Source: an archaeon
GTDB taxonomy: Archaea; SpSt-1190; DYHY01
Reading direction: 5' to 3'
Length of the DNA stretch: 64,000 nucleotides
NCBI GenBank assembly: GCA_043803745.1
Contig: JAZDJS010000021.1
Coordinates: forward strand, 16,738-80,737
The position numbers and the translations under genes were made by a program. Position 1 is the first letter of the stretch, and each line of letters starts with the position of its first letter. The notes beneath the pieces were generated by a model, which saw only the letters and a list, made by a program, of their open reading frames with translations, searched no databases and was not told the origin of the DNA. This document shows, in pieces, positions 1 through 58,643 of the stretch.

Positions 1-1648
1 AAGATGTAGTCAAGGATCTCGTCCGTAAGGTCTGCCGGAGTCAGTTTCTCCTCCTTGATTATGTGGGAAACTGTGTAGTAAGCCATGTAAATCACCGAAT
101 CCGAAAGGGTTTCGACAATCCAGGATTTGTCCCAGGGCAAAGGGGTGCCGAGCCCGGAGCGGCGGGCGCAGGCCTTGTCATGGAGCCAGTCGACCGTGTT
201 CTCGAACTGGGTCCGGTAGGTTTCGGGACGGAAGTTCATTTTCGAGATTGCCTTCTTCACTTTGACCTTCCAGGCTTCGTCGGAGAATTTCAGGAACCAC
301 TGGTTCTCGAGAATCTTCACAATGCAGGTCGTTCCGCAGCGGCAGACAACATTGTCGTCGGCTTCCCAGATGAAATCCAGGATTCCCGCCGCGAAGAAAT
401 CTTTCTTAAGCTGCTCCTTGCATGCGTCAACGGACATCCCGGCGTATTTGCCGGAGACTGGGAGCATCTTTCCCTCGTGATGTTCCTTCCGGTAAATTTC
501 CTCCTTCGCCTTCTGGAGCTTGTCGGCATCCTTCTGGCTTGATATTCCGAGGCGCTCGACAATCTCCTTCGAGGGATGCTCGCCATATCCCGGGACGGTT
601 ATCACCGCAACGGGCGTCAGCGAAGAGATTTCTTCGGGGTCGATCCCGTATTCGCTGAGGATGGAGGGATTTTTCTTCAAATCCTCCTCCCCGACCCAGT
701 CGAAAGGGGCGTGCGAGGGAACGGACATCACAACCCCCGTCGTATGGCTACCATCTACGAAGTCGGCTGGAAGGATTATCATCCATTTGCCGTTCGCCGG
801 ATTCCTGCATTTCTTCCCGAAGAATTCCCTCGGGCTGAAAGGCGGGCTGACCTCCCCGACATCATTCCGCTGGTTCCGGAGTTTCTCAACCGACTTTTCC
901 GAGACAATCCAGGTTTCCTTTCCGATTTTCACGTCAACATACTTTTCGCTAGGATTGAGGAACATCGAAGTCACTCCGAAGATTGTTTCGGGCCGGAGGG
1001 TTGCCGGGGTGAGGATTCTCCCGTCCTCGAGAGGGAACTTGAGAATTGAAAAGTCCTGGGGACTTGCGCCCTCCCCGTAAAGTCGGTCATGGTCGCCGGT
1101 CGGGCTCTGGCATCTTGTGCAGTAGATTACCGGATGAGTCCCCTGGACAACATATCCCAGCGCGCGGAGGGTGTTGTATTGCCATTCGATGAAGCGGGAG
1201 AATGTCGGGGTGAGCTGCGTCGTGACGAAGGTCCTCCTCCAGTCAATCGAGCCTCCGATTGCGTCAAGGGTTTCCTTGAAAATCCCCTTCCAATAGTTCA
1301 CAATGTAGACCGGTTCGGTGAACTTGCCCAGTTCCCCTTCCGGGACCCCCGAATCAAGGAGAATTTGCCTCTGCTTCTCGTCGCCGGCTTTCAGGCGGGA
1401 GGCAACACCGGCAATAGGCTCGCCGGTCGCGTGGAAACCGAACGGGAAGAGGACGTTTTTTCCTTTCAGCCTTTGGAACCTTGCGGAAACGTCAAGGCGG
1501 GTGAATGTATAGCCATGCCCCATGTGCATTGCGCCGTTGACATATGGGAAGGGGAAAGTGAGGAAGAACTTTTGGCGCGAGTCTGGCTCCGCCTCGAAAA
1601 CCCGCTCCTCCTGCCAGGTTTTGGAGATTTCGGATTCTGATCGTTCCA
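1..1648 (-). CDS. leuS: Leucyl-tRNA synthetase, N-terminal part (the gene runs off the left edge of the window)
   Basis: Reverse-strand translation from the ATG at 1646-1648 gives MERSESEISKTWQEERVFEAEPDSRQKFFLTFPFPYVNGAMHMGHGYTFTRLDV...RFIEWQYNTLRALGYVVQGTHPVIYCTRCQSPTGDHD. This has the class I HxGH-type motif (HMGH) and strong resemblance to archaeal LeuRS (FIEWQF..GDHD block). The + strand ORFs in the track at 63-1640 are shadow ORFs. Confidence 0.85.
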
Positions 1649-3032: not shown

Positions 3033-3165
3033 TAGCTACTATGTAGTAACTAATCTTTATAAGAGTTTTGGGTTTAAAAAGGCTGGCAAAATGACTGAAA
3101 TGTTACTTGCAGGTTTTGCCACAAACCCGCTTTTCAATCTGAACCAACCAACGCAGTTACGCGTT

Positions 3166-3365
3166 TTTTCTTTTGCGCCCGTCAACGGAGCTTTTCTTTT
3201 GCGAAAAGAAAAGATGGGTTGGGAGTGGACTGGACGGGAGTCCCCTACCGGACTTCGGCTAGCGCCTCAGGAACCCGTGACAGTGGGGTTTTCTTTTGCG
3301 CCCGTCAACGGAGCTTTTCTTTTGCGAAAAGAAAAGATGGGTTGGGAGTGGACTGGACGGGAGTC
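3166..3365. repeat. Tandem direct repeat with a 123-bp period. Copies are about 77 nt and about 74 nt are identical. Each copy ends with the last 17 nt of tRNA-Ala (tggactggacgggagtc) preceded by a conserved palindromic trailer.
   Basis: Copy 1 is at about 3166-3242 and copy 2 at 3287-3365. Copy 2 overlaps the 3-prime end of the tRNA-Ala gene. The 44-nt spacer at 3243-3286 contains gaacccgtgac, which is a T-arm fragment. Confidence 0.9.
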
Positions 3366-3420
3366 GAACCCGTGACCTCAGCGTTGCGAACGCCGCATTC
3401 TACCACTGAACTACCAGCCC
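3349..3420 (-). tRNA. tRNA-Ala (anticodon CGC)
   Basis: The reverse complement folds as GGGCTGG-TA-GTTC..GAAT-GCGGCG TTCGCAA CGCTGA-GGTC-ACGGG TTCGACT CCCGT-CCAGTCC-A. The G3:U70 pair is the alanine identity element. The anticodon loop is TTCGCAA. CCA is not encoded. Confidence 0.85.
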
Positions 3421-3606
3421 GTGCGTCTATCCAAGTTCAGTGGCGGTATATTAGCATTCCTGAGCCATCAGGCAAAGTCCGTGAGCGCACGGATACCACT
3501 GAACTACCCGCCCTTTTTTTACTGAACCCGAGCCATCGCAGGCGAGGTCCGCGCTTGATGCACGGATACCGGCCCTTGAACTTTTGGAAACTCTTCCGGG
3601 TTTTTA
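3421..3606 (-). other. Two tandem degenerate units of about 90 nt upstream of tRNA-Ala. They contain tRNA-like 5-prime fragments (GGGCGGGTAGTTCAGTGGTA on the minus strand), hairpins (TCCGTGCGCTCACGGA; CCTGATGGCTCAGG) and A/T runs. This is a possible structured ncRNA or pseudo-tRNA.
   Basis: The minus-strand read gives GGGCCGGTATCCGTGCATCAAGCGCGGACCTCGCCTGCGATGGCTCGGG.. and GGGCGGGTAGTTCAGTGGTATCCGTGCGCTCACGGACTTTGCCTGATGGCTCAGG.. The units are homologous to each other. The + strand copies end in T7 and T5 runs. Confidence 0.3.
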
Positions 3607-3668
3607 ATAGATTCTGTAGGTCTGCAAAGGTAAGATATTTAAATAATCACTAGGTAATGATGAATTAG

Positions 3669-4076: not shown

Positions 4077-5275
4077 GCGCTTCTCAAATCCCGTTTAGGA
4101 AACAGGAAAATCCCCAGCGCGAACAGAGGAATGACTGCGGCGAATGCGAATGCTGCAGAAGGCCCGGAATATTTCCAGAGGAGCCCCGCAATAGCCGAAG
4201 CTGGAAGATAGACAAGCCCGGTTACGAAGCTGTAGAGACCGATTGCGCTTGCCCGGGTCTCCTTTGCGGATGTGTCGGAGATGTAGGCTTTGCTCTGCGC
4301 CTCGTCAAGCGTGTAGAAGATTCCGAAAAGGAGGAACAGGATGATTATCGTCTCCCGGGAATTCGCAAGAAGGAAGCCTATTGAGATTGCGGAGTACAGG
4401 ACATATTCTCCGGCAACAAGATATTTCCGGCCTATCTTGTCGCCCAGTTTCCCGAGGGGGACTGCAAACAGGAAGAAGGAAACGTTGAAGGTTGCATAGA
4501 GGAGAACGACCTCGCTTGCGGAGAAGCCGACAAGATATGCCTTGAGGAGGAGGAAGGAGAAGCTGAAATAGGAAAGGGAGAAGACTGCCGAGGAAAGAAG
4601 GTAGCGCTTCAAATCCCCGGAGAGGGTTCCGAGAATCTGGAAGGGATTCGCGCGGATTGCTCTTTTCCTCGGCTTCCGGTCCTTCACGAAAAGGACAAGG
4701 ACAAGGACGGAAAGAATTGCGGGAACGAGAGCGACTGCGAAGAGGAACCGGAACGCTGAAGGGGTTTCCCCGAGGGACTTGAGAATCAGATATGCAACGA
4801 AAGGTCCCAAAATTGCCCCGGCCTTGTCAAGCATTTTGTGGATTCCGAACGAAGCCCCGGTCTTCCCTTCCGAGGAAATCGTTGATATTAGCGCATCTCT
4901 CGGAGCGCCGCGGATCGATTTTCCTAGGCGCTCGACAACCCGGAAAAGGGCTGCCCCGAAAACCGTCGGGAGGAAAAGGATTATTGATTTCGCAGCAGTC
5001 GAGAATCCGTAGCCGAAAACCGCGAACGGCTTTCTTTTGCCAGTTTTGTCGGAAAGGTAGCCGGAAACAAAGTCAAGGGAGGAGGCCGCGAAATCAGAAA
5101 GGCCCTCGACAAGCCCGAGGAGCGCCTGGGATGCCCCAAGGATTACAGTGAAGAAAACGGAGAAAACGGAGAAAATCATTTCCGAGCTTATGTCAGTCAG
5201 GAAGCTGACGATTCCTAGAATAATTATTTCTAGGGGAACCCCGAAAATCTGCCTTGGCTTTCTTTTCTCGCCCAT
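4067..5275 (-). CDS. MFS (major facilitator superfamily) transporter
   Basis: 402 aa with about 12 predicted TM helices and MFS-like loops (GxLSDKTGKRKP). Confidence 0.75.
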   Translation of the reverse strand: MGEKRKPRQIFGVPLEIIILGIVSFLTDISSEMIFSVFSVFFTVILGASQALLGLVEGLSDFAASSLDFVSGYLSDKTGKRKPFAVFGYGFSTAAKSIILFLPTVFGAALFRVVERLGKSIRGAPRDALISTISSEGKTGASFGIHKMLDKAGAILGPFVAYLILKSLGETPSAFRFLFAVALVPAILSVLVLVLFVKDRKPRKRAIRANPFQILGTLSGDLKRYLLSSAVFSLSYFSFSFLLLKAYLVGFSASEVVLLYATFNVSFFLFAVPLGKLGDKIGRKYLVAGEYVLYSAISIGFLLANSRETIIILFLLFGIFYTLDEAQSKAYISDTSAKETRASAIGLYSFVTGLVYLPASAIAGLLWKYSGPSAAFAFAAVIPLFALGIFLFPKRDLRSAQR

Positions 5276-5333
5276 TTAGGTCGTGGTCCTTTTTCGTTTT
5301 CCCGTGAAAGGTCCTCTGCAGAGGAGGTTTCAG

Positions 5334-5420
5334 CGCCGAGAATGGGATTTGAACCCATATATCCCCGAAGGGAAACCAGCTCTCAAGGCTGGCGCGTTGA
5401 CCGGATTTCGCTATCTCGGC
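5334..5420 (-). tRNA. tRNA-Ser (anticodon TGA), class II with a long variable arm
   Basis: The reverse complement is GCCGAGA-TAGCGAAATCCGGTCAACGCG-CCAGC CTTGAGA GCTGG-TTTCCCTTCGGGGATATA-TGGGTTCAAATCCCA-TCTCGGC-G. The TATA TTTATAAA at 5443-5450 sits about 26 nt upstream of the 5-prime end. Confidence 0.85.
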
Positions 5421-5573
5421 AGGTTCTAAGGCTTGATGGTAGTTTATAAAATGAAGTTTTTCTTACGCCCGTCAACGGATTTTCTTTTTGCCAAAAAGAA
5501 AATGGGTTGGATGTTGACCGGATTTCGCTCTTATCTCGGCGTGCGTTAAGGCAAGGAGGGAGTTTATAAAATG
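5396..5573. repeat. Direct repeat with a 117-bp period. It duplicates the first roughly 28 nt of tRNA-Ser plus its TATA promoter (unit A 5396-5453, unit B 5513-5573, about 85% identical). The palindromic trailer element lies between the units.
   Basis: gttgaccggatttcgctatctcggcaggttctaaggcttgatggtagtttataaaatg versus gttgaccggatttcgctcttatctcggcgtgcgttaaggcaaggagggagtttataaaatg. Confidence 0.85.
5443..5450 (-). promoter_or_regulatory. Archaeal TATA box (TTTATAAA) for tRNA-Ser
   Basis: Palindromic TATA centred about 26 nt upstream of the tRNA 5-prime end. Confidence 0.6.
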
Positions 5574-5595
5574 GGCGCTGATTGGAAGAGAGACG

Positions 5596-5784
5596 ATGGA
5601 TTCTCCTTCTCACCAAGCGAAACCCGCAAGGGAAAAGCGCCTCCAGGTGGACTGCATGAACTGCGGGGAAGCGGTTGACATAACTGGCAAGGCTGCGGGG
5701 GAGAGAATATTCTGCCCTGAATGCAAAGCGGAATTCGTCGTTGCCCTGATAGACGGGCATCTTGATATCGAATTCCTGACCTGA
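5596..5784 (+). CDS. Small zinc-ribbon protein (CxxC...CxxC), LysW-like architecture
   Basis: 62 aa, ...CMNCGEAVDITGKAAGERIFCPECKAEFVVALIDGHLDIEFLT. The duplicated TATA (5563-5570) is about 29 nt upstream, consistent with a leaderless promoter. Confidence 0.45.
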   Translation: MDSPSHQAKPAREKRLQVDCMNCGEAVDITGKAAGERIFCPECKAEFVVALIDGHLDIEFLT

Positions 5785-31756: not shown

Positions 31757-32155
31757 GTGAGTTTTTCCAAACTCGATTATGAGAAAACTTCCGCCAAGGG
31801 GGTCCTGATTGCAGCCGTTGAAACTGGCCGGGCAAAATCTGTCTCGGTGATAAAATTCCTCCCCGGCTCAAGCTTTCCAAGCCATTCCCACGGGAAAGCA
31901 ACGGAGCGTTATTTCGCGGTTTCAGGCAAGGGCATCGTTTCCGTTGGGAAGCTGAAACGGGTTCTGGACAAGGGGGATTCAATCGAGATTGGGCGAGGAA
32001 GGGTTCATTCCGTTTCCAATCCGTTCAAGAGGCAGTTCGTAATGGTCGAGATTTCAATTCCCGGATTTGACGAAAAAGACGTTCTGTTTGGACCAAAAGG
32101 CCGGAAGATTCAAGCGGAAAGGATTAAATACCGGAAGAGCCGGCCTTTCCACTAA
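31757..32155 (+). CDS. Cupin-domain protein
   Basis: FPSHSHGKATERYFAVSGKG...GDSIEIGRGRVHSV. Confidence 0.55.
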   Translation: MSFSKLDYEKTSAKGVLIAAVETGRAKSVSVIKFLPGSSFPSHSHGKATERYFAVSGKGIVSVGKLKRVLDKGDSIEIGRGRVHSVSNPFKRQFVMVEISIPGFDEKDVLFGPKGRKIQAERIKYRKSRPFH

Positions 32156-32156
32156 T

Positions 32157-33314
32157 ATGAGGGGCAGCCTTTTTGCGGATTCAACTGGATTCTCCGAGAA
32201 AAACCTTTTCAGGGACGAGGGGATCCTTTACTCGGATTTCCTTCCGGACAAGCTGCCGCACAGGGAAGGCCATGCGCGCTTCCTTGCTGATTGCCTGAGG
32301 CCAATCACCGGCGGGAAGAGCCCGGAGAACGTTTTCATCTGGGGTCCCGCAGGGGTCGGGAAAACCTCCGTTGCGAAGTTCGTCCTCCGGGAGATGAAGG
32401 AGCACACCGAAATCCCTGTTGTCTACATAAACTGCTGGCAGAACGACACGAGGCACGCGGTCCTGACGACAATCGCATATGCGCTTGGGAGCTTTGCGCC
32501 CCGGAGGGGGACTGCGACCGATGAAATCTTCGAAAAGGCCTGCGAGGGGATGAAAAGGCGCGGGGGGAAGGGGCTTGTGATCGTGCTTGACGAGATTGAC
32601 AAGCTCCTTGCGAACGACGGGGGGCGGCTTCTCTACGACCTTGCAAGGGGACCGGTCTTTACCGGAAAGACGGGAATCGTCATGATTTCTAACGACGAAT
32701 ATGCCCTCCGGAAACTCGACGACCGGACGAGGAGCAGCCTCTCCTACCAAGAGTCCTCATATCCCGCATATTCCTTCGAGGAGCTGAAAGGGATTTTCTC
32801 GGAAAGGATCGGGGCTGCGTTCGTCGAGGGTTCCGTGAAAGCGGGAGTGAACTCCGCGGTTGCGAGGATTGTCGCGGATTCCGGCGGGGACGTAAGGCTC
32901 GGGCTCGACTGCCTCCTCAAGGCGGGACGGCTTGCAGAATCCGACGGGAAGGATTTTTCGGTCGAGCACGTCCAGAAGATGATTGGGAAGATCCAGAACA
33001 GCAAGACGAAGGCGATAATCACGGGGCTCGAGAGAAACCTCCTTGGAATCGTCAGGATTCTCGCTGCGACCGGGATAAGGGAGAAAACAACCGGGGAGCT
33101 TCTTGCCGATTATTCGCGGGAAATGGGGGAAACGAACGAGCGGACCTTCAGGAACTACCTGACTGAGCTCGAGACGAAGGGAGTGATAACCTCGGTGATG
33201 AGCGGCAAGGGCCAACGGGGGAAAACAAGGATAATCACGCTGAAGAACTCCGAGATGGTAAGGAGAATCCTTCAATCAGCTAATGAGGATGGCAAAGGAG
33301 GAAAGGAAAAATAA
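32157..33314 (+). CDS. cdc6: Orc1/Cdc6 replication initiator (AAA+ plus C-terminal winged helix)
   Basis: HREGHARFLADCL...IWGPAGVGKTSVAKFV (Walker A), VIVLDEIDKL (Walker B). Start at the ATG at 32157. Confidence 0.9.
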   Translation: MRGSLFADSTGFSEKNLFRDEGILYSDFLPDKLPHREGHARFLADCLRPITGGKSPENVFIWGPAGVGKTSVAKFVLREMKEHTEIPVVYINCWQNDTRHAVLTTIAYALGSFAPRRGTATDEIFEKACEGMKRRGGKGLVIVLDEIDKLLANDGGRLLYDLARGPVFTGKTGIVMISNDEYALRKLDDRTRSSLSYQESSYPAYSFEELKGIFSERIGAAFVEGSVKAGVNSAVARIVADSGGDVRLGLDCLLKAGRLAESDGKDFSVEHVQKMIGKIQNSKTKAIITGLERNLLGIVRILAATGIREKTTGELLADYSREMGETNERTFRNYLTELETKGVITSVMSGKGQRGKTRIITLKNSEMVRRILQSANEDGKGGKEK

Positions 33315-35851: not shown

Positions 35852-36029
35852 CCGTGCTCCCGACGGTTGAGTCATCTTCAGAGGACGAAATCTCGGGACG
35901 CGAGCGCGTTAGACCCGCCAGACGAAAAAGTGCGAGTGCTCCCGACGGTTGAGTCATCTTCAGAGGACGAAATCTCGGGACGCGAGCGCGTTAGACCCGC
36001 CAGACGAAAAAGTGCGAGTGCTCCCGACG
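35852..36029. repeat. Perfect tandem repeat of 2 x 82 bp plus a 13-nt third start. Each unit begins with the last 13 nt of tRNA-Glu (gtgctcccgacgg) followed by 69 nt of trailer.
   Basis: Units at 35852-35933 and 35934-36015 are identical. The third unit is the tRNA 3-prime end itself. Confidence 0.9.
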
Positions 36030-36091
36030 GGATTTGAACCCGTGTCTCGGGCTCGAGAAGCCCAGATCCTTGGCCGAGCTAGACGACAGGA
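36017..36091 (-). tRNA. tRNA-Glu (anticodon CTC)
   Basis: The reverse complement is GCTCCTG-TCGTCTAGCTCGGCCAAGGATC-TGGGC TTCTCGA GCCCG-AGAC-ACGGG TTCAAAT CCCGT-CGGGAGC-A. Confidence 0.85.
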
Positions 36092-36187: not shown

Positions 36188-36305
36188 GGGTCCATAGCTC
36201 AGCCCGGTAGAGCGGCAGTCTTATATGACTGTGTTCTATACACAAAGGATAGACTAGGTCTGAGTCAGCTGTTGGTCATGGGTTCGAATCCCATTGGGCC
36301 CACCA
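36188..36305 (+). tRNA. Intron-containing tRNA (118 nt including the encoded CCA). The tentative mature anticodon loop is CTTATAA, giving anticodon UAU (tRNA-Ile2 type). The isotype is uncertain.
   Basis: GGGTCCA-TA-GCTC AGCCCGGTA GAGC-G-GCAGT CTTATA | 41-nt intron (contains the hairpin TGTGTTCTATACACA) | A-GCTGT-TGGTC-ATGGG TTCGAAT CCCAT-TGGGCCC-A-CCA. The acceptor has a G4:U pair. A GCCCC-TTCA-GGGGC hairpin follows immediately. Confidence 0.65.
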
Positions 36306-36365
36306 GCCCCTTCAGGGGCTGAAGAAATTCCCACAGCCAGCATTCCCTTTGCGCTCTGAGGGGCT

Positions 36366-36410
36366 CATTGGGCCCACCAGAGCCCGTTTTCTTTTCCGAA
36401 AGAAAAAGCC
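36366..36410 (+). repeat. Copy of the tRNA 3-prime end (cattgggcccacca) 74 bp downstream of the intron-containing tRNA, followed by the palindromic trailer (gcccgttttcttttccgaaagaaaaag)
   Basis: 14-nt exact copy at 36366-36379. The trailer at 36381-36410 is similar to the elements at 3176-3222 and 5463-5510. Confidence 0.7.
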
Positions 36411-36426
36411 TTCGGGGAAAAAGAAA

Positions 36427-37326
36427 TCATTGGAGCGGGAAATACCTGCAAAAGGCGCAGAGCTTTCCCGAGGTCGGCTCCCTGCCGCAGGAGGGACAGA
36501 GCCGCGTCTCCTTCCCGAGGAGGGGGGCAAAAACCGGCTGGCCCTTGGAAAGATAGCTCAAGTAGAATTTCAGCCTGAATCCCGGTTCCCTCTTTTCAGC
36601 TGAAGAGAGGATTGCTTGCCACTTTTCCGTCTTCGGCTCCTTTGAAAAATTGCATTTCTTCTTCAAGTAGGGGAGTTTGAATAGTTTCGCCCAGTTTGAA
36701 AGCTCCTCCTTCGAGAAGAGGCAGAGCGGCTTTACCTTCTTCCCGAATCCAGGCAAGAGGCCGGAAACAATGGGAGTTCTCCGGGAAAGAATGTCTGGAT
36801 TCCAGGAATATACGCCGCCGAAAATCGCGGCTGTTTCGTCGTCAAGGTGATGGCCGGTTGCGAACGGGATTCCGGATTCCCGCGCCTCCCGGTTCAGGAG
36901 GGCGTTCCTTATTTCGCTGCAGGTTGCGCAGGGGTTTCGCCCCGTTCTTGAAAGTATTTCCCCGAGGGATTTATCCGGCTTTAGCAGCTTCAACTCAACG
37001 CCGCAGAAGCCGGAAATTCTCTCCGCAGCTTTTCTCGATTTGACTGAGAAAGCCCCGTTGCCCAAATCAACATGGATTGCGCGGACATTGAAACCGGCAA
37101 GCTTGAGCGAGTGGCAGAGGACGGAGCTGTCAAGGCCTCCGGAAAGCGCGACAAGGAAGGAGTTTCCCATCTGGAAATTCTTGACAGTCCAGTTTATTCT
37201 CCGAAGGAACCATTCCTTGTAATGCTCCCTGCAAAGGTCGTATTTGTGAGCCGGGAGGTGGAAGATTGCCTTTTTCTTCGCCGGGGCGTTCTTCTTGATG
37301 CAGATTGTGCAGTAAGGTGAAGACAC
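36427..37326 (-). CDS. PP-loop ATP pyrophosphatase of the TtcA/NcsA (Ctu1-like) tRNA thiolation family
   Basis: SGGLDSSV PP-loop, N-terminal CxxC and C-terminal CPSCG..CAFC zinc/Fe-S cysteines. Confidence 0.6.
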   Translation of the reverse strand: MSSPYCTICIKKNAPAKKKAIFHLPAHKYDLCREHYKEWFLRRINWTVKNFQMGNSFLVALSGGLDSSVLCHSLKLAGFNVRAIHVDLGNGAFSVKSRKAAERISGFCGVELKLLKPDKSLGEILSRTGRNPCATCSEIRNALLNREARESGIPFATGHHLDDETAAIFGGVYSWNPDILSRRTPIVSGLLPGFGKKVKPLCLFSKEELSNWAKLFKLPYLKKKCNFSKEPKTEKWQAILSSAEKREPGFRLKFYLSYLSKGQPVFAPLLGKETRLCPSCGREPTSGKLCAFCRYFPLQ

Positions 37327-57861: not shown

Positions 57862-57890
57862 TTTGCCGCAAGGGAGAATTCTCCCCGCTT

Positions 57891-57898
57891 TTTATAAA
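57891..57898. promoter_or_regulatory. Palindromic TATA box TTTATAAA, midway between the two divergent tRNA-Arg genes (about 30 bp from each 5-prime end). A GGAGAATTCTCC palindrome lies at 57873-57884.
   Basis: The spacing fits archaeal BRE/TATA-to-TSS distances in both directions. Confidence 0.55.
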
Positions 57899-57924
57899 CT
57901 CGGATTTTCCTACTTTTGCCCTCC

Positions 57925-58002
57925 GGACCCGTAGCTTAGCTTGGATAGAGCGAGTGGCTTCGAACCACTAGGTCGGGGGTCCAAATCCCTCCGGGTCCGC
58001 CA
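57925..58002 (+). tRNA. tRNA-Arg (anticodon TCG), CCA encoded
   Basis: GGACCCG-TA-GCTT AGCTTGGATA GAGC-G-AGTGG CTTCGAA CCACT-AGGTC-GGGGG TCCAAAT CCCTC-CGGGTCC-G-CCA. Confidence 0.85.
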
Positions 58003-58130
58003 AGCGTCCCCTCAGATCTCGCCCAGGTGAAAGCGCGCATAATAGGCTTGACCTCCGGGTCCGCCAAGCGTCCCCTCAGATCTCGCCCAGGTGAAAGCGC
58101 GCATAATAGGCTTGACCTCCGGGTCCGCCA
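57990..58130. repeat. Tandem repeat of 64 bp x 2.2. Each unit starts with the last 13 nt of tRNA-Arg(TCG) including CCA (tccgggtccgcca).
   Basis: Units at 57990-58053 and 58054-58117 are identical. A third start at 58118-58130 then diverges. Confidence 0.9.
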
Positions 58131-58193
58131 GAACCCATCCTCCGCGGAGGATCCGTTCGCGGGCGTCAAAGAAAGGTTGTGAAAAACCATAAA

Positions 58194-58643
58194 ATGGCTG
58201 CCAAAACAAAACGGGAAAAAAGGGCTTTTGCGAACGGCGATGCAATCATAATCCAAAAAGGAAAAATCCTCCTCGAGAAAAGGCATTCCGGAAAATGGGG
58301 CGGCTACTGGTGCCTTCCCGGGGGAAAGCTCAGGCAGGGGGAAAGCGTTTCGGCCGGAGTGGCAAGGGAGGTTTTCGAGGAGACCGGTTTCAGAGTAAGG
58401 ATTGGGAAGCTTGCCGGAATTTATTCGGGCAAGAAAAAATTTCGGGGAAGCACTTCAATTGACACAACGTTCTTTTCCGAAATAACCGGGGGAAAAGAAA
58501 GGCTCCAGAAGGAAGAGGTTGACGAGCTCGGCTGGTTCGGTCCGGAGAACCTTCCGGAAAAGCTGGCGTTCGACCACGACAAGAGAATCAAGGACGCCTT
58601 CGCAATAATCGGCGGAAGGAAGCGGGCACCTGTGATTTCCTGA
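58194..58643 (+). CDS. NUDIX hydrolase
   Basis: GGKLRQGESVSAGVAREVFEETG is the Nudix box. Confidence 0.7.
   Translation: MAAKTKREKRAFANGDAIIIQKGKILLEKRHSGKWGGYWCLPGGKLRQGESVSAGVAREVFEETGFRVRIGKLAGIYSGKKKFRGSTSIDTTFFSEITGGKERLQKEEVDELGWFGPENLPEKLAFDHDKRIKDAFAIIGGRKRAPVIS

Follow-up and report, generated by a model that had tools for sequence, protein, structure and literature searches.

A covarying hairpin module directly downstream of tRNA genes in a Micrarchaeum relative, a candidate pre-tRNA 3'-trailer element

Why does one palindromic element recur at the ends of unrelated transfer RNA (tRNA) genes in a single archaeal genome? The question is raised by a 64,000-nucleotide stretch of contig JAZDJS010000021.1 (assembly GCA_043803745.1; hereafter the window), which belongs to a small archaeon related to Micrarchaeum. 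The element is a module of about 55 bases, a hairpin plus a tail, situated directly 3' of tRNA genes. The initial annotation described it as a terminator-like module and left two options, a mobile or recombinogenic unit behind the duplicated tRNA ends found nearby, or a lineage-specific tRNA terminator or processing signal. With moderate confidence, and on the basis of sequence, we propose that the module is a lineage-specific structured element of the precursor tRNA (pre-tRNA) 3' trailer, which would serve 3'-end formation by termination and/or processing. It belongs to one subclade of Micrarchaeota-like archaea and is apparently undescribed, since a search of the literature found no description of such a trailer.

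Reading of every tRNA trailer, together with a covariance-model search (model R2, filters off), yielded six copies of the module in the window and nothing else above noise (Table 1). All six lie on the strand of the adjoining tRNA, and the module begins 2-5 nt (usually 3 nt) 3' of the tRNA discriminator base or follows a tRNA fragment. Its onset falls at the CCA position, or at a CTT/CCT that is presumably a decayed CCA. Four copies had been reported initially, and all of them are present with ends displaced by 1-3 nt (3175-3225, 3298-3348, 5465-5513 and 36382-36410), but two more, behind tRNA-Arg(TCG) and tRNA-Ser(TGA), had been missed, and the supposed short version at 36.4 kb proved to be a B-type copy with the full architecture. 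ARAGORN, Rfam and the sequence itself agree with the earlier observation that every copy adjoins a tRNA end or fragment.

In the sense of the tRNA, the module reads N-AAC, CC, AT-stem-loop-stem-AT, CC and GTT-N', after which come ACGGG(CG) and a run rich in A (AAAAGAAA or similar). It folds as one long imperfect hairpin, in which a 4-bp outer helix (N-AAC/GTT-N') is joined through a 2x2 C/C internal loop, invariant across copies, to an inner helix of 8-12 bp; the same long hairpin was predicted independently by RNAalifold. The A/T palindrome on which the element was first recognized is real, as the pattern TTTTCTTTT-N(1-5)-AAAAGAAAA has three matches in the window against 0.00 expected (100 shuffles), but it continues outward across the C/C loop into the N-AAC/GTT-N' helix. 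The 14-mer CGCCCGTCAACGGA likewise occurs exactly three times in the window. Behind tRNA-Ala(CGC), copy 1 reads CTCC-CAAC-CC-AT-CTTTTCTTTT-CGC-AAAAGAAAAG-CT-CC-GTTG-ACGGGCG-CAAAAGAAAA, with hairpin arms at 3306-3323 and 3327-3344 (3183-3200 and 3204-3221 in copy 2). The sequence GCGCCCGTCAACGGAGCTTTTCTTTTGCGAAAAGAAAAGATGGGTTGGGAG is accordingly found at 3175-3225 and 3298-3348, inside an exact direct repeat of 77 nt (3166-3242 and 3289-3365), which takes in the final 17 nt of the tRNA. The diverged A/T-stem copy near tRNA-Ser has its arms at 5473-5490 and 5492-5509. Two copies have exchanged the A/T stem for a G/C stem, one behind tRNA-Ser(TGA) (CT-GAAA-CC-TCCTCTGCAGAGGA-CC-TTTC-ACGGG-AAAACGAAAAAGG) and one behind tRNA-Arg(TCG) (GAAC-CC-ATCCTCCGCGGAGGAT-CC-GTTC-GCGGGCG-TCAAAGAAAGG); in the latter, all flanks are kept (GAACCCAT...ATCCGTTCGCGGGCG-TCAAAGAAAGG) and the stem is the G/C palindrome CCTCCGCGGAGG. 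The B-type copy reads GAG-CC-CGTTTTCTTTTCCGAAAGAAAAAG-CC-TTC-GGGG-AAAAAGAAA.

Both helices covary, in line with the compensatory stem changes first noted between copies. Paired cells amount to 94-96%, with both-sided changes in 9-10 of 15-16 pairs, and the observed covariation was matched by none of 500 shuffles; when the partners were slid by 1-3 columns, pairing fell to 42-68%. The outer pair is C-G in seven sequences, G-C in five and A-U in one, and is unpaired in none. Between the tRNA-Arg(TCG) orthologues of the window and of the relative locus L002, it shows a compensatory swap from G-C to C-G. The three wobble pairs are all G-U on the tRNA strand, and no A-C pair occurs. The half-sites are asymmetric (CAACCCAT versus CAACGGAT on the other strand). 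The asymmetry of the C/C loop and the few G-U wobbles would thus fit a single-stranded molecule of tRNA sense better than a symmetric DNA site. A model with two hairpins (the A/T hairpin plus CCG-TTNA-CGG) was rejected, since covariation ties the "loop" base of the second hairpin to the one preceding AAC and RNAalifold favours one long hairpin; the small CCG-TTNA-CGG hairpin is a possible alternative fold. AACCC is complementary to the near-universal GGGTT of the T-arm, and the C-loop and the G run could, judging from their sequence, form a small alternative hairpin or a tertiary contact. Pairing of module tails with tRNA leaders was considered and dropped, as the two showed no consistent complementarity (judged by eye).

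These features bear directly on whether the module acts as DNA, that is as a boundary, a bidirectional terminator or a protein-binding palindrome, insulating highly transcribed tRNA genes in both directions or binding a dimeric factor while the hairpin is a by-product. A/T-rich perfect palindromes can extrude as cruciforms, and such a role would account for the T-rich runs on both strands of the A/T-type copies, for the antisense TTTCTT(T) run that the A-rich tail produces in every copy, G/C-stem ones included, and for the B-type copy, which adjoins the stop codon (36427-36429) of a convergent PP-loop ATPase gene (open reading frame (ORF), Pfam). It is nevertheless distinctly unlikely: the half-sites are not symmetric, the C/C-loop asymmetry is invariant, all copies have a single orientation relative to the tRNA, and the downstream neighbours are mostly co-directional, not convergent. 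In addition, the stem sequence is free to change, even to G/C, while pairing is kept, which misfits recognition of a T run or of half-sites.

The comparison with relatives was based on a sample of about 190 kb from roughly seven genomes, whose loci carry L numbers below. RpoB'' identity, with the RpoB'' of L009 as query, served as a yardstick of distance and gave graded relatives. When comparative loci were sought through neighbouring proteins, homologues of the MFS and NUDIX proteins led to bacterial or Candidate Phyla Radiation (CPR) contigs only, and none of the window's own proteins was found in the contig index. In 126 kb, the covariance model gave 13 full-length matches (10 distinct sequences), all on the tRNA strand; each is immediately preceded by the 3' end of a tRNA, by a copy of such an end or by a tRNA fragment, and there is none elsewhere. 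The module is present on 10 of the 24 sampled tRNA genes of the clade, including tRNA-Gly(GCC) of L008, which is followed by a B-type copy. Two large collections were also scanned, both with one strict pattern. Among genomes, taken as one per species, the scan gave a single archaeal match, directly after tRNA-Gly(TCC) in a metagenome-assembled genome (MAG) of Candidatus Micrarchaeum. Among metagenomes (JGI), it gave eight loci, of which two are GC-rich chance matches without a hairpin and six are real, representing four distinct sequences from two samples. In the real ones, the module lies behind tRNA-Arg(TCG), again with a G/C stem, tRNA-Ser(CGA), tRNA-Leu(TAG) and an intron tRNA. Because both collection scans relied on one strict pattern, the true distribution of the module is probably wider. 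Rfam 15 returned only the tRNA at gathering scores, and a permissive scan of 3100-3620 gave chance-level matches of 16 bits or less.

The module is therefore not confined to the three places where it was first seen, and the earlier suggestion of a lineage-specific module tied to tRNA 3' ends gains support from further tRNAs of the window and from three other genomes, in which it follows Gly, Ser, Leu, Arg and intron tRNAs. Its sequence is conserved where its surroundings are not: the tRNA-Arg(TCG) module is about 87% identical between the window and L002 (hand count), while the adjoining spacer has indels and little identity.

Table 1. Positions of tRNA genes, module copies and tRNA-derived repeats in the window
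Feature	Position	Strand	Evidence and remarks
tRNA-Ala(CGC) gene	3349..3420	-	ARAGORN; Rfam tRNA 67.2 bits; module onset right after discriminator base
Module copy 1, A-type, A/T stem	3289..3348	-	R2 66.8 bits
Spacer, 46 nt, between two [tRNA-Ala 3' end + module] repeats	3243..3288	-	read from sequence
Exact copy of the last 17 nt of tRNA-Ala (GACTCCCGTCCAGTCCA)	3226..3242	-	direct repeat; longest common substring 17 nt
Module copy 2, identical to copy 1	3166..3225	-	direct repeat; R2 65.7 bits
tRNA-Ser(TGA) gene	5334..5420	-	ARAGORN; Rfam
Module copy, diverged, G/C stem, directly after tRNA-Ser(TGA)	5288..5333	-	R2 29 bits, E 2e-6, filters off
Module copy, A-type, A/T stem, diverged	5455..5512	-	direct repeat; R2 76.1 bits
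Duplicated tRNA-Ser 5' fragment with its own TATA-box leader	5513..5573	-	direct repeats
Intron-containing tRNA	36188..36305	+	Rfam tRNA 57 bits; missed by ARAGORN
Module copy, B-type, full architecture, variant flanks	36380..36426	+	R2 50.1 bits
tRNA-Arg(TCG) gene, CCA encoded	57925..58002	+	ARAGORN; Rfam
Tandem array after tRNA-Arg(TCG), 64-nt unit, 2.2 copies	57988..58130	+	TRF 100% matches; self-BLAST
Module copy, A-type flanks, G/C stem	58131..58176	+	R2 57.4 bits; after third tRNA-Arg(TCG) 3'-end copy

How such a trailer would work can be proposed from its layout. In the A/T-type and B-type copies, a T-rich run (T4-T6; TTTTCTTTT or similar) begins at +10 to +14 from the tRNA or from its 3'-end copy, and this run is the 5' arm of the hairpin. 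Archaeal RNA polymerase terminates at signals of this kind, and one such polymerase is reported to do so efficiently at runs of five to six T (PMC2253867). At the intron tRNA of the window and at the tRNA-Leu locus of L005, the first T run after the tRNA is the module's own, at +85 to +87. Where transcription reads through, the hairpin would set or shield the 3' boundary at which endonucleolytic trimming takes place, with the cleavage beside the CCA in tRNAs that encode one. The A-rich arm and tail also create T runs on the opposite strand, which could stop antisense or convergent transcription into the tRNA gene.

The copies with a G/C stem seem to behave differently. They are followed by co-directional ORFs, an MFS transporter (Pfam MFS_1) starting at 5275, 13 nt past the tRNA-Ser(TGA) module, and a NUDIX hydrolase (by the source's naming) starting at 58194, 18 nt past the tRNA-Arg(TCG) module, with no TATA box between tRNA and ORF. 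A G/C stem that lacks a T run, combined with a close co-directional ORF, suggests deliberate read-through. This placement of the MFS (5275-5333, minus strand) and NUDIX (58131-58196, plus strand) genes suggests that tRNA and mRNA may be co-transcribed; the G/C stem would probably allow it, and the module would become the 5' end of the processed mRNA. The same two loci, together with the conserved structure, the conserved single-stranded motifs and the (ARN)n-like A-rich tail, could also be accommodated if the module were a small RNA in its own right, released from the trailer by RNase Z, or a stabilising 5' hairpin of downstream mRNAs. We regard this as very improbable, since the early T run of most copies should truncate the transcript, the downstream context varies (another tRNA promoter, a convergent gene, tRNA fragments), Rfam gave no match and no target can be proposed.

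Several observations weigh against a trailer signal for 3'-end formation. The tRNA-Arg(TCG) copies (window and L002) and the tRNA-Ser(TGA) copy contain no T run in the tRNA sense, so that the "T-rich tract plus hairpin" of the initial annotation holds for most copies but not for these, and within 120 nt of several of the clade's tRNAs there is no T4 run; oligo-T termination thus does not hold universally here. A polymerase that stopped in the T-rich 5' arm would leave no RNA hairpin, and the covariation would then require read-through transcripts or a reason at the DNA level. One copy follows a tRNA-Ser 5' fragment instead of a 3' end. The invariant AACCC, C/C loop and ACGGGCG, which a partner would presumably read, have no assigned reader. 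Termination and processing are, moreover, roles that we infer from the sequence.

Nor is the module stably tied to one tRNA. At the intron tRNA upstream of rpoB'', it is present in L009 and absent from L029, L023 and L028 (the MAG of the tRNA-Gly(TCC) copy), whose RpoB'' proteins are 85%, 84% and 81% identical to that of L009, and it is also absent at this tRNA in the more distant L024 (68%) and L026 (65%). Such turnover would fit a mobile origin too. In L029 and L023, the orthologous tRNA without a module is directly followed by a different, unrelated hairpin, and a tRNA, about three bases and a hairpin are therefore the local habit, the module being one conserved family of these hairpins.

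Among known systems, the nearest analogue appears to be an archaeal oligo-dT terminator with a trailer hairpin added. As in such terminators, most copies of the module place a T-rich stretch on the coding strand, no more than about 15 nt past the RNA 3' end, and no dedicated factor need be postulated. The known terminators, however, need neither a hairpin nor conserved flanks, whereas in the module a hairpin of 16-18 bp covaries, the C/C loop is invariant and the ACGGGCG tail is conserved, and some of its copies have no T run. Similarly, Rho-independent terminators and repetitive extragenic palindromic (REP) sequences share with it a stem-loop at gene 3' ends, repeated at many loci with a variable stem sequence. 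"Terminator-like" is apt insofar as a terminator or processing signal is the best reading, but the build is not the bacterial one: the T run precedes the loop as the 5' arm, and the hairpin is followed by ACGGGCG and the A-rich run, not by a U tract. A consensus terminator scan gave 4 sites against 4.2 expected, none of which is the module hairpin. Unlike REP-type palindromes, the module is confined to tRNA ends and not spread over intergenic regions, and no RAYT or TnpA gene accompanies it.

Disrupted tRNA genes are themselves a property of the lineage. Those of ARMAN/Micrarchaeum are highly disrupted, T-loop introns included, and are served by a splicing endonuclease of broad specificity (Fujishima et al. 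2011, PMC3239211), in an account that mentions neither trailers nor terminators. With the bulge-helix-bulge (BHB) processing motif the module, which is found in that same lineage, shares a 4-bp helix flanked by unpaired bases; the motif differs by its two staggered 3-nt bulges, against a symmetric 2x2 loop in the module, and no BHB forms across the duplicated tRNA ends. The idea that these ends represent T-arm BHB introns was likewise dropped after a scripted scan over ten of them gave only trivial self-complementary 4-mers.

The self-duplication of tRNA ends is a stranger finding than the module itself. Partial self-copies accompany tRNA-Glu, tRNA-Arg(TCG), the intron tRNA (36291-36381, plus strand), tRNA-Ala (3166-3365, minus strand) and the 5' end and promoter of tRNA-Ser (5396-5573, minus strand) in the window. 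The tRNA-Glu end forms an array of an 82-nt unit in 2.2 copies (35854-36030, minus strand) without a module, and the unit of the tRNA-Arg(TCG) array consists of 15 nt of the tRNA 3' end and a spacer of 49-50 nt. The 3' end of the intron tRNA (probably tRNA-Ile(UAU)), CATTGGGCCCACCAG, recurs at 36367-36381, beyond a 58-nt spacer. At the tRNA-Ser locus, a 28-nt 5' fragment reaching up to the D-loop is duplicated, its region being a diverged copy of 5396-5453, and a module stands between this fragment and the promoter of the real tRNA-Ser. Across the clade, at least 10 nt of a tRNA's own 3' end recur exactly 43-200 nt downstream in 11 of 21 cases, and at least 12 nt of its own 5' end recur exactly upstream in 7 of 21, often with leader and promoter; self-copies in controls reach 8 nt at most. 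The exact 3'-end copies span 10-17 nt; repeats of 12-17 nt start in the T-loop or T-stem and occur one to three times downstream, and at the tRNA-Ala locus the repeat reaches 77 nt, trailer module included. Self-copied ends were also found in L001, L002, L004, L005, L008, L009 and L028. Five outgroup tRNAs showed no self-copies, their only long matches (11-15 nt, L024) being the T-arm of a neighbouring tRNA gene. Spacers between the copies are gene-free and 43-190 nt long, no kilobase-scale element was seen, and spacer homology is solid only for tRNA-Arg(TCG), window versus L002. A spacer motif, GAGAYYTCG, considered as the mark of one element family, is common in coding DNA and so not specific.

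Could the module, then, be part of mobile DNA, either as the arm next to the attachment (att) site of integrative or mobile elements or as a hairpin recombination site in itself? Elements that target tRNAs would bring a copy of the tRNA end together with a trailer, and their decay would leave remnants of tRNA, module, spacer and tRNA end while spreading the module. Five loci show exactly the order tRNA, module, spacer and 3'-end copy (Ala, Gly-GCC of L008, Ser-CGA of L004, Gly-TCC of L001 and the intron tRNA of L009), which is what integration of a module-bearing element would give. At the tRNA-Ser locus, the module is the exact sequence between two copies of promoter plus tRNA 5' end, and orthologous tRNAs of close relatives differ in its presence. 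Integrases that target tRNAs reportedly leave, as their classic footprint, direct repeats of the tRNA 3' end that begin in the T-loop or T-stem, and the AAC...GTT feet of the hairpin bear some resemblance to integron attC core sites.

A mobile origin is nonetheless unlikely. When the loci were compared with an integrated element, direct repeats of a tRNA 3' portion were found, but neither an integrase, nor cargo genes, nor a match to a virus or plasmid. No recombinase, integrase, transposase or HUH nuclease is encoded among the approximately 50 ORFs of the window, whose genes are ordinary housekeeping ones (Orc1/Cdc6, FEN1, IleRS, a Toprim-domain protein, DnaK/GrpE and others). IMG/VR and the phage and plasmid collections returned no match to the module, only the tRNA itself, and the spacers are short and gene-free. 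Within one genome, the stems differ by compensatory changes, and the tRNA-Arg(TCG) orthologues share their special G/C stem, which points to old, vertically inherited copies under selection and not to recent transposition.

The duplications and the module are also separable, because each occurs without the other. Duplicated ends are equally common where the module is missing (tRNA-Glu in the window; in relatives, Arg-CCT, Arg-CCG and an intron tRNA), and tRNA-Ser(TGA), which has the module behind it, shows no second copy of its 3' end. The Arg and intron-tRNA arrays have the module after their last repeat, outside the repeated unit; at the Ala and Gly-GCC loci it is inside the unit, where it looks like a passenger. 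Judged from this arrangement, the module is probably not the driver of the tRNA-end duplications, which leaves little support for the initial suggestion of a mobile or recombinogenic unit behind them.

The likeness to tRNA att sites, attC sites and the ends of IS200/IS605 insertion sequences (IS) extends to the direct repeats of tRNA 3' ends and to an imperfect hairpin with conserved feet and unpaired bases, in which structure is more conserved than sequence. It stops at the recombinase, the cargo and the cassette array, which the module lacks, and at the duplication junctions, which lie at the tRNA end and not in GTT. The core sites of attC follow the consensus RYYYAAC...GTTRRRY and are complementary over 7 bp. 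In the module, only the 4 bp of N-AAC/GTT-N' pair, GTTGACG misfits GTTRRRY, and neither cassette arrays nor an IntI occur in the window. The hairpin could also pass for the inverted repeats of a MITE (miniature inverted-repeat transposable element) or an IS-derived repeat, yet the copies are found at tRNA ends only and in one orientation, the flanking repeats vary from 12 to 82 nt, and no transposase is present in the window.

A broader proposal would unite the module and the nested tRNA-end copies in a single undescribed Micrarchaeota system acting on tRNA genes, guided by the hairpin and driven by a recombinase or by repair. Short non-coding cassettes of 43-190 nt would be inserted at tRNA boundaries, with a second copy made of either the tRNA end or the promoter together with the 5' end, and the module would be their recognition or resolution site, loosely comparable to attC or dif-type hairpin sites. 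We consider this seriously doubtful.

If the module is a trailer element for 3'-end formation, it would add to the usual view of archaea, in which termination and tRNA 3'-end maturation need little besides RNase Z and a T run. A trailer whose sequence and structure are conserved across unrelated tRNA genes and across species would imply a dedicated reader, protein or RNA, or an undescribed hairpin-dependent step in archaea, and its hosts, ultrasmall symbionts of the DPANN group, are already known for the unusual disruption of their tRNA genes. The covariance model marks true tRNA 3' boundaries and so aids annotation. With end copies near about half of the sampled tRNAs of the clade, the duplications, if they reflect an active process, would bear on tRNA fragmentation, permutation and splitting in archaea.

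Further observations concern the tRNA loci themselves. Some distal tRNA 3' fragments are longer, starting from about position 49, and are broken right after the T-loop TTC by 20-40 unrelated nt; they are found in the window at 3243-3288 (minus strand), in L008 at about 224-336 (minus strand) and in L009 downstream of tRNA-Pro. In the window, this spacer holds the 5' half of a second tRNA-Ala T-arm (GTCACGGGTTC, 3271-3281), then 28 unrelated nt. The interruption falls where T-loop introns are reported in ARMAN-2. A split-tRNA-like complementarity between 3446-3470, in the extension of an upstream tRNA-Ala fragment, and 3245-3270 of the spacer (19 of 25 positions plus 3 G-U, inverted) was judged marginal and rejected, 12 of 500 shuffles scoring as high. 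Two tRNA-Ala 5' fragments lie upstream of the gene (3421-3580, minus strand), GGGCGGGTAGTTCAGTGGTA at 3494-3513 and GGGCCGGTA at 3567-3575. After each come a hairpin that covaries between the two (TCCGTGCGCTCACGGA / TCCGTGCATCAAGCGCGGA) and YTYGCCTG(CG)ATGGCTC. In L008, a similar TCCGTG hairpin follows a tRNA-Gly 5' fragment, and these hairpins may constitute a second repeated element family.

The genes for tRNA-Arg(CCG) and tRNA-Arg(TCG) are divergent and 63 nt apart (57862-57924), each with a TTTATAAA box. The pair is kept in L002/L007, and the tRNA-Arg(CCG) 3' end is duplicated in L002 but not in the window. The intron tRNA of the window and two of L009 (1951-2059 and 4797-4967, minus strand) were found by the Rfam tRNA model only and missed by ARAGORN; the 171-nt tRNA of L009 probably has more than one intron. 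On the strand opposite to tRNA-Ala and its modules, two ORFs of 94 aa (3091-3375, plus strand) and 144 aa (3219-3653, plus strand) run across them. It is almost certain that neither is a gene, and automatic annotation could be misled by them. A zinc-ribbon ORF of 62 aa (5596-5784, plus strand) has its ATG 24 nt downstream of the palindromic TATA box (TTTATAAA) in the duplicated tRNA-Ser leader (5560-5600), and from this spacing the duplicated promoter may now drive the ORF as a leaderless mRNA. Finally, the Orc1/Cdc6 gene is located at 32067-33314 (plus strand), and a replication origin may lie near it.

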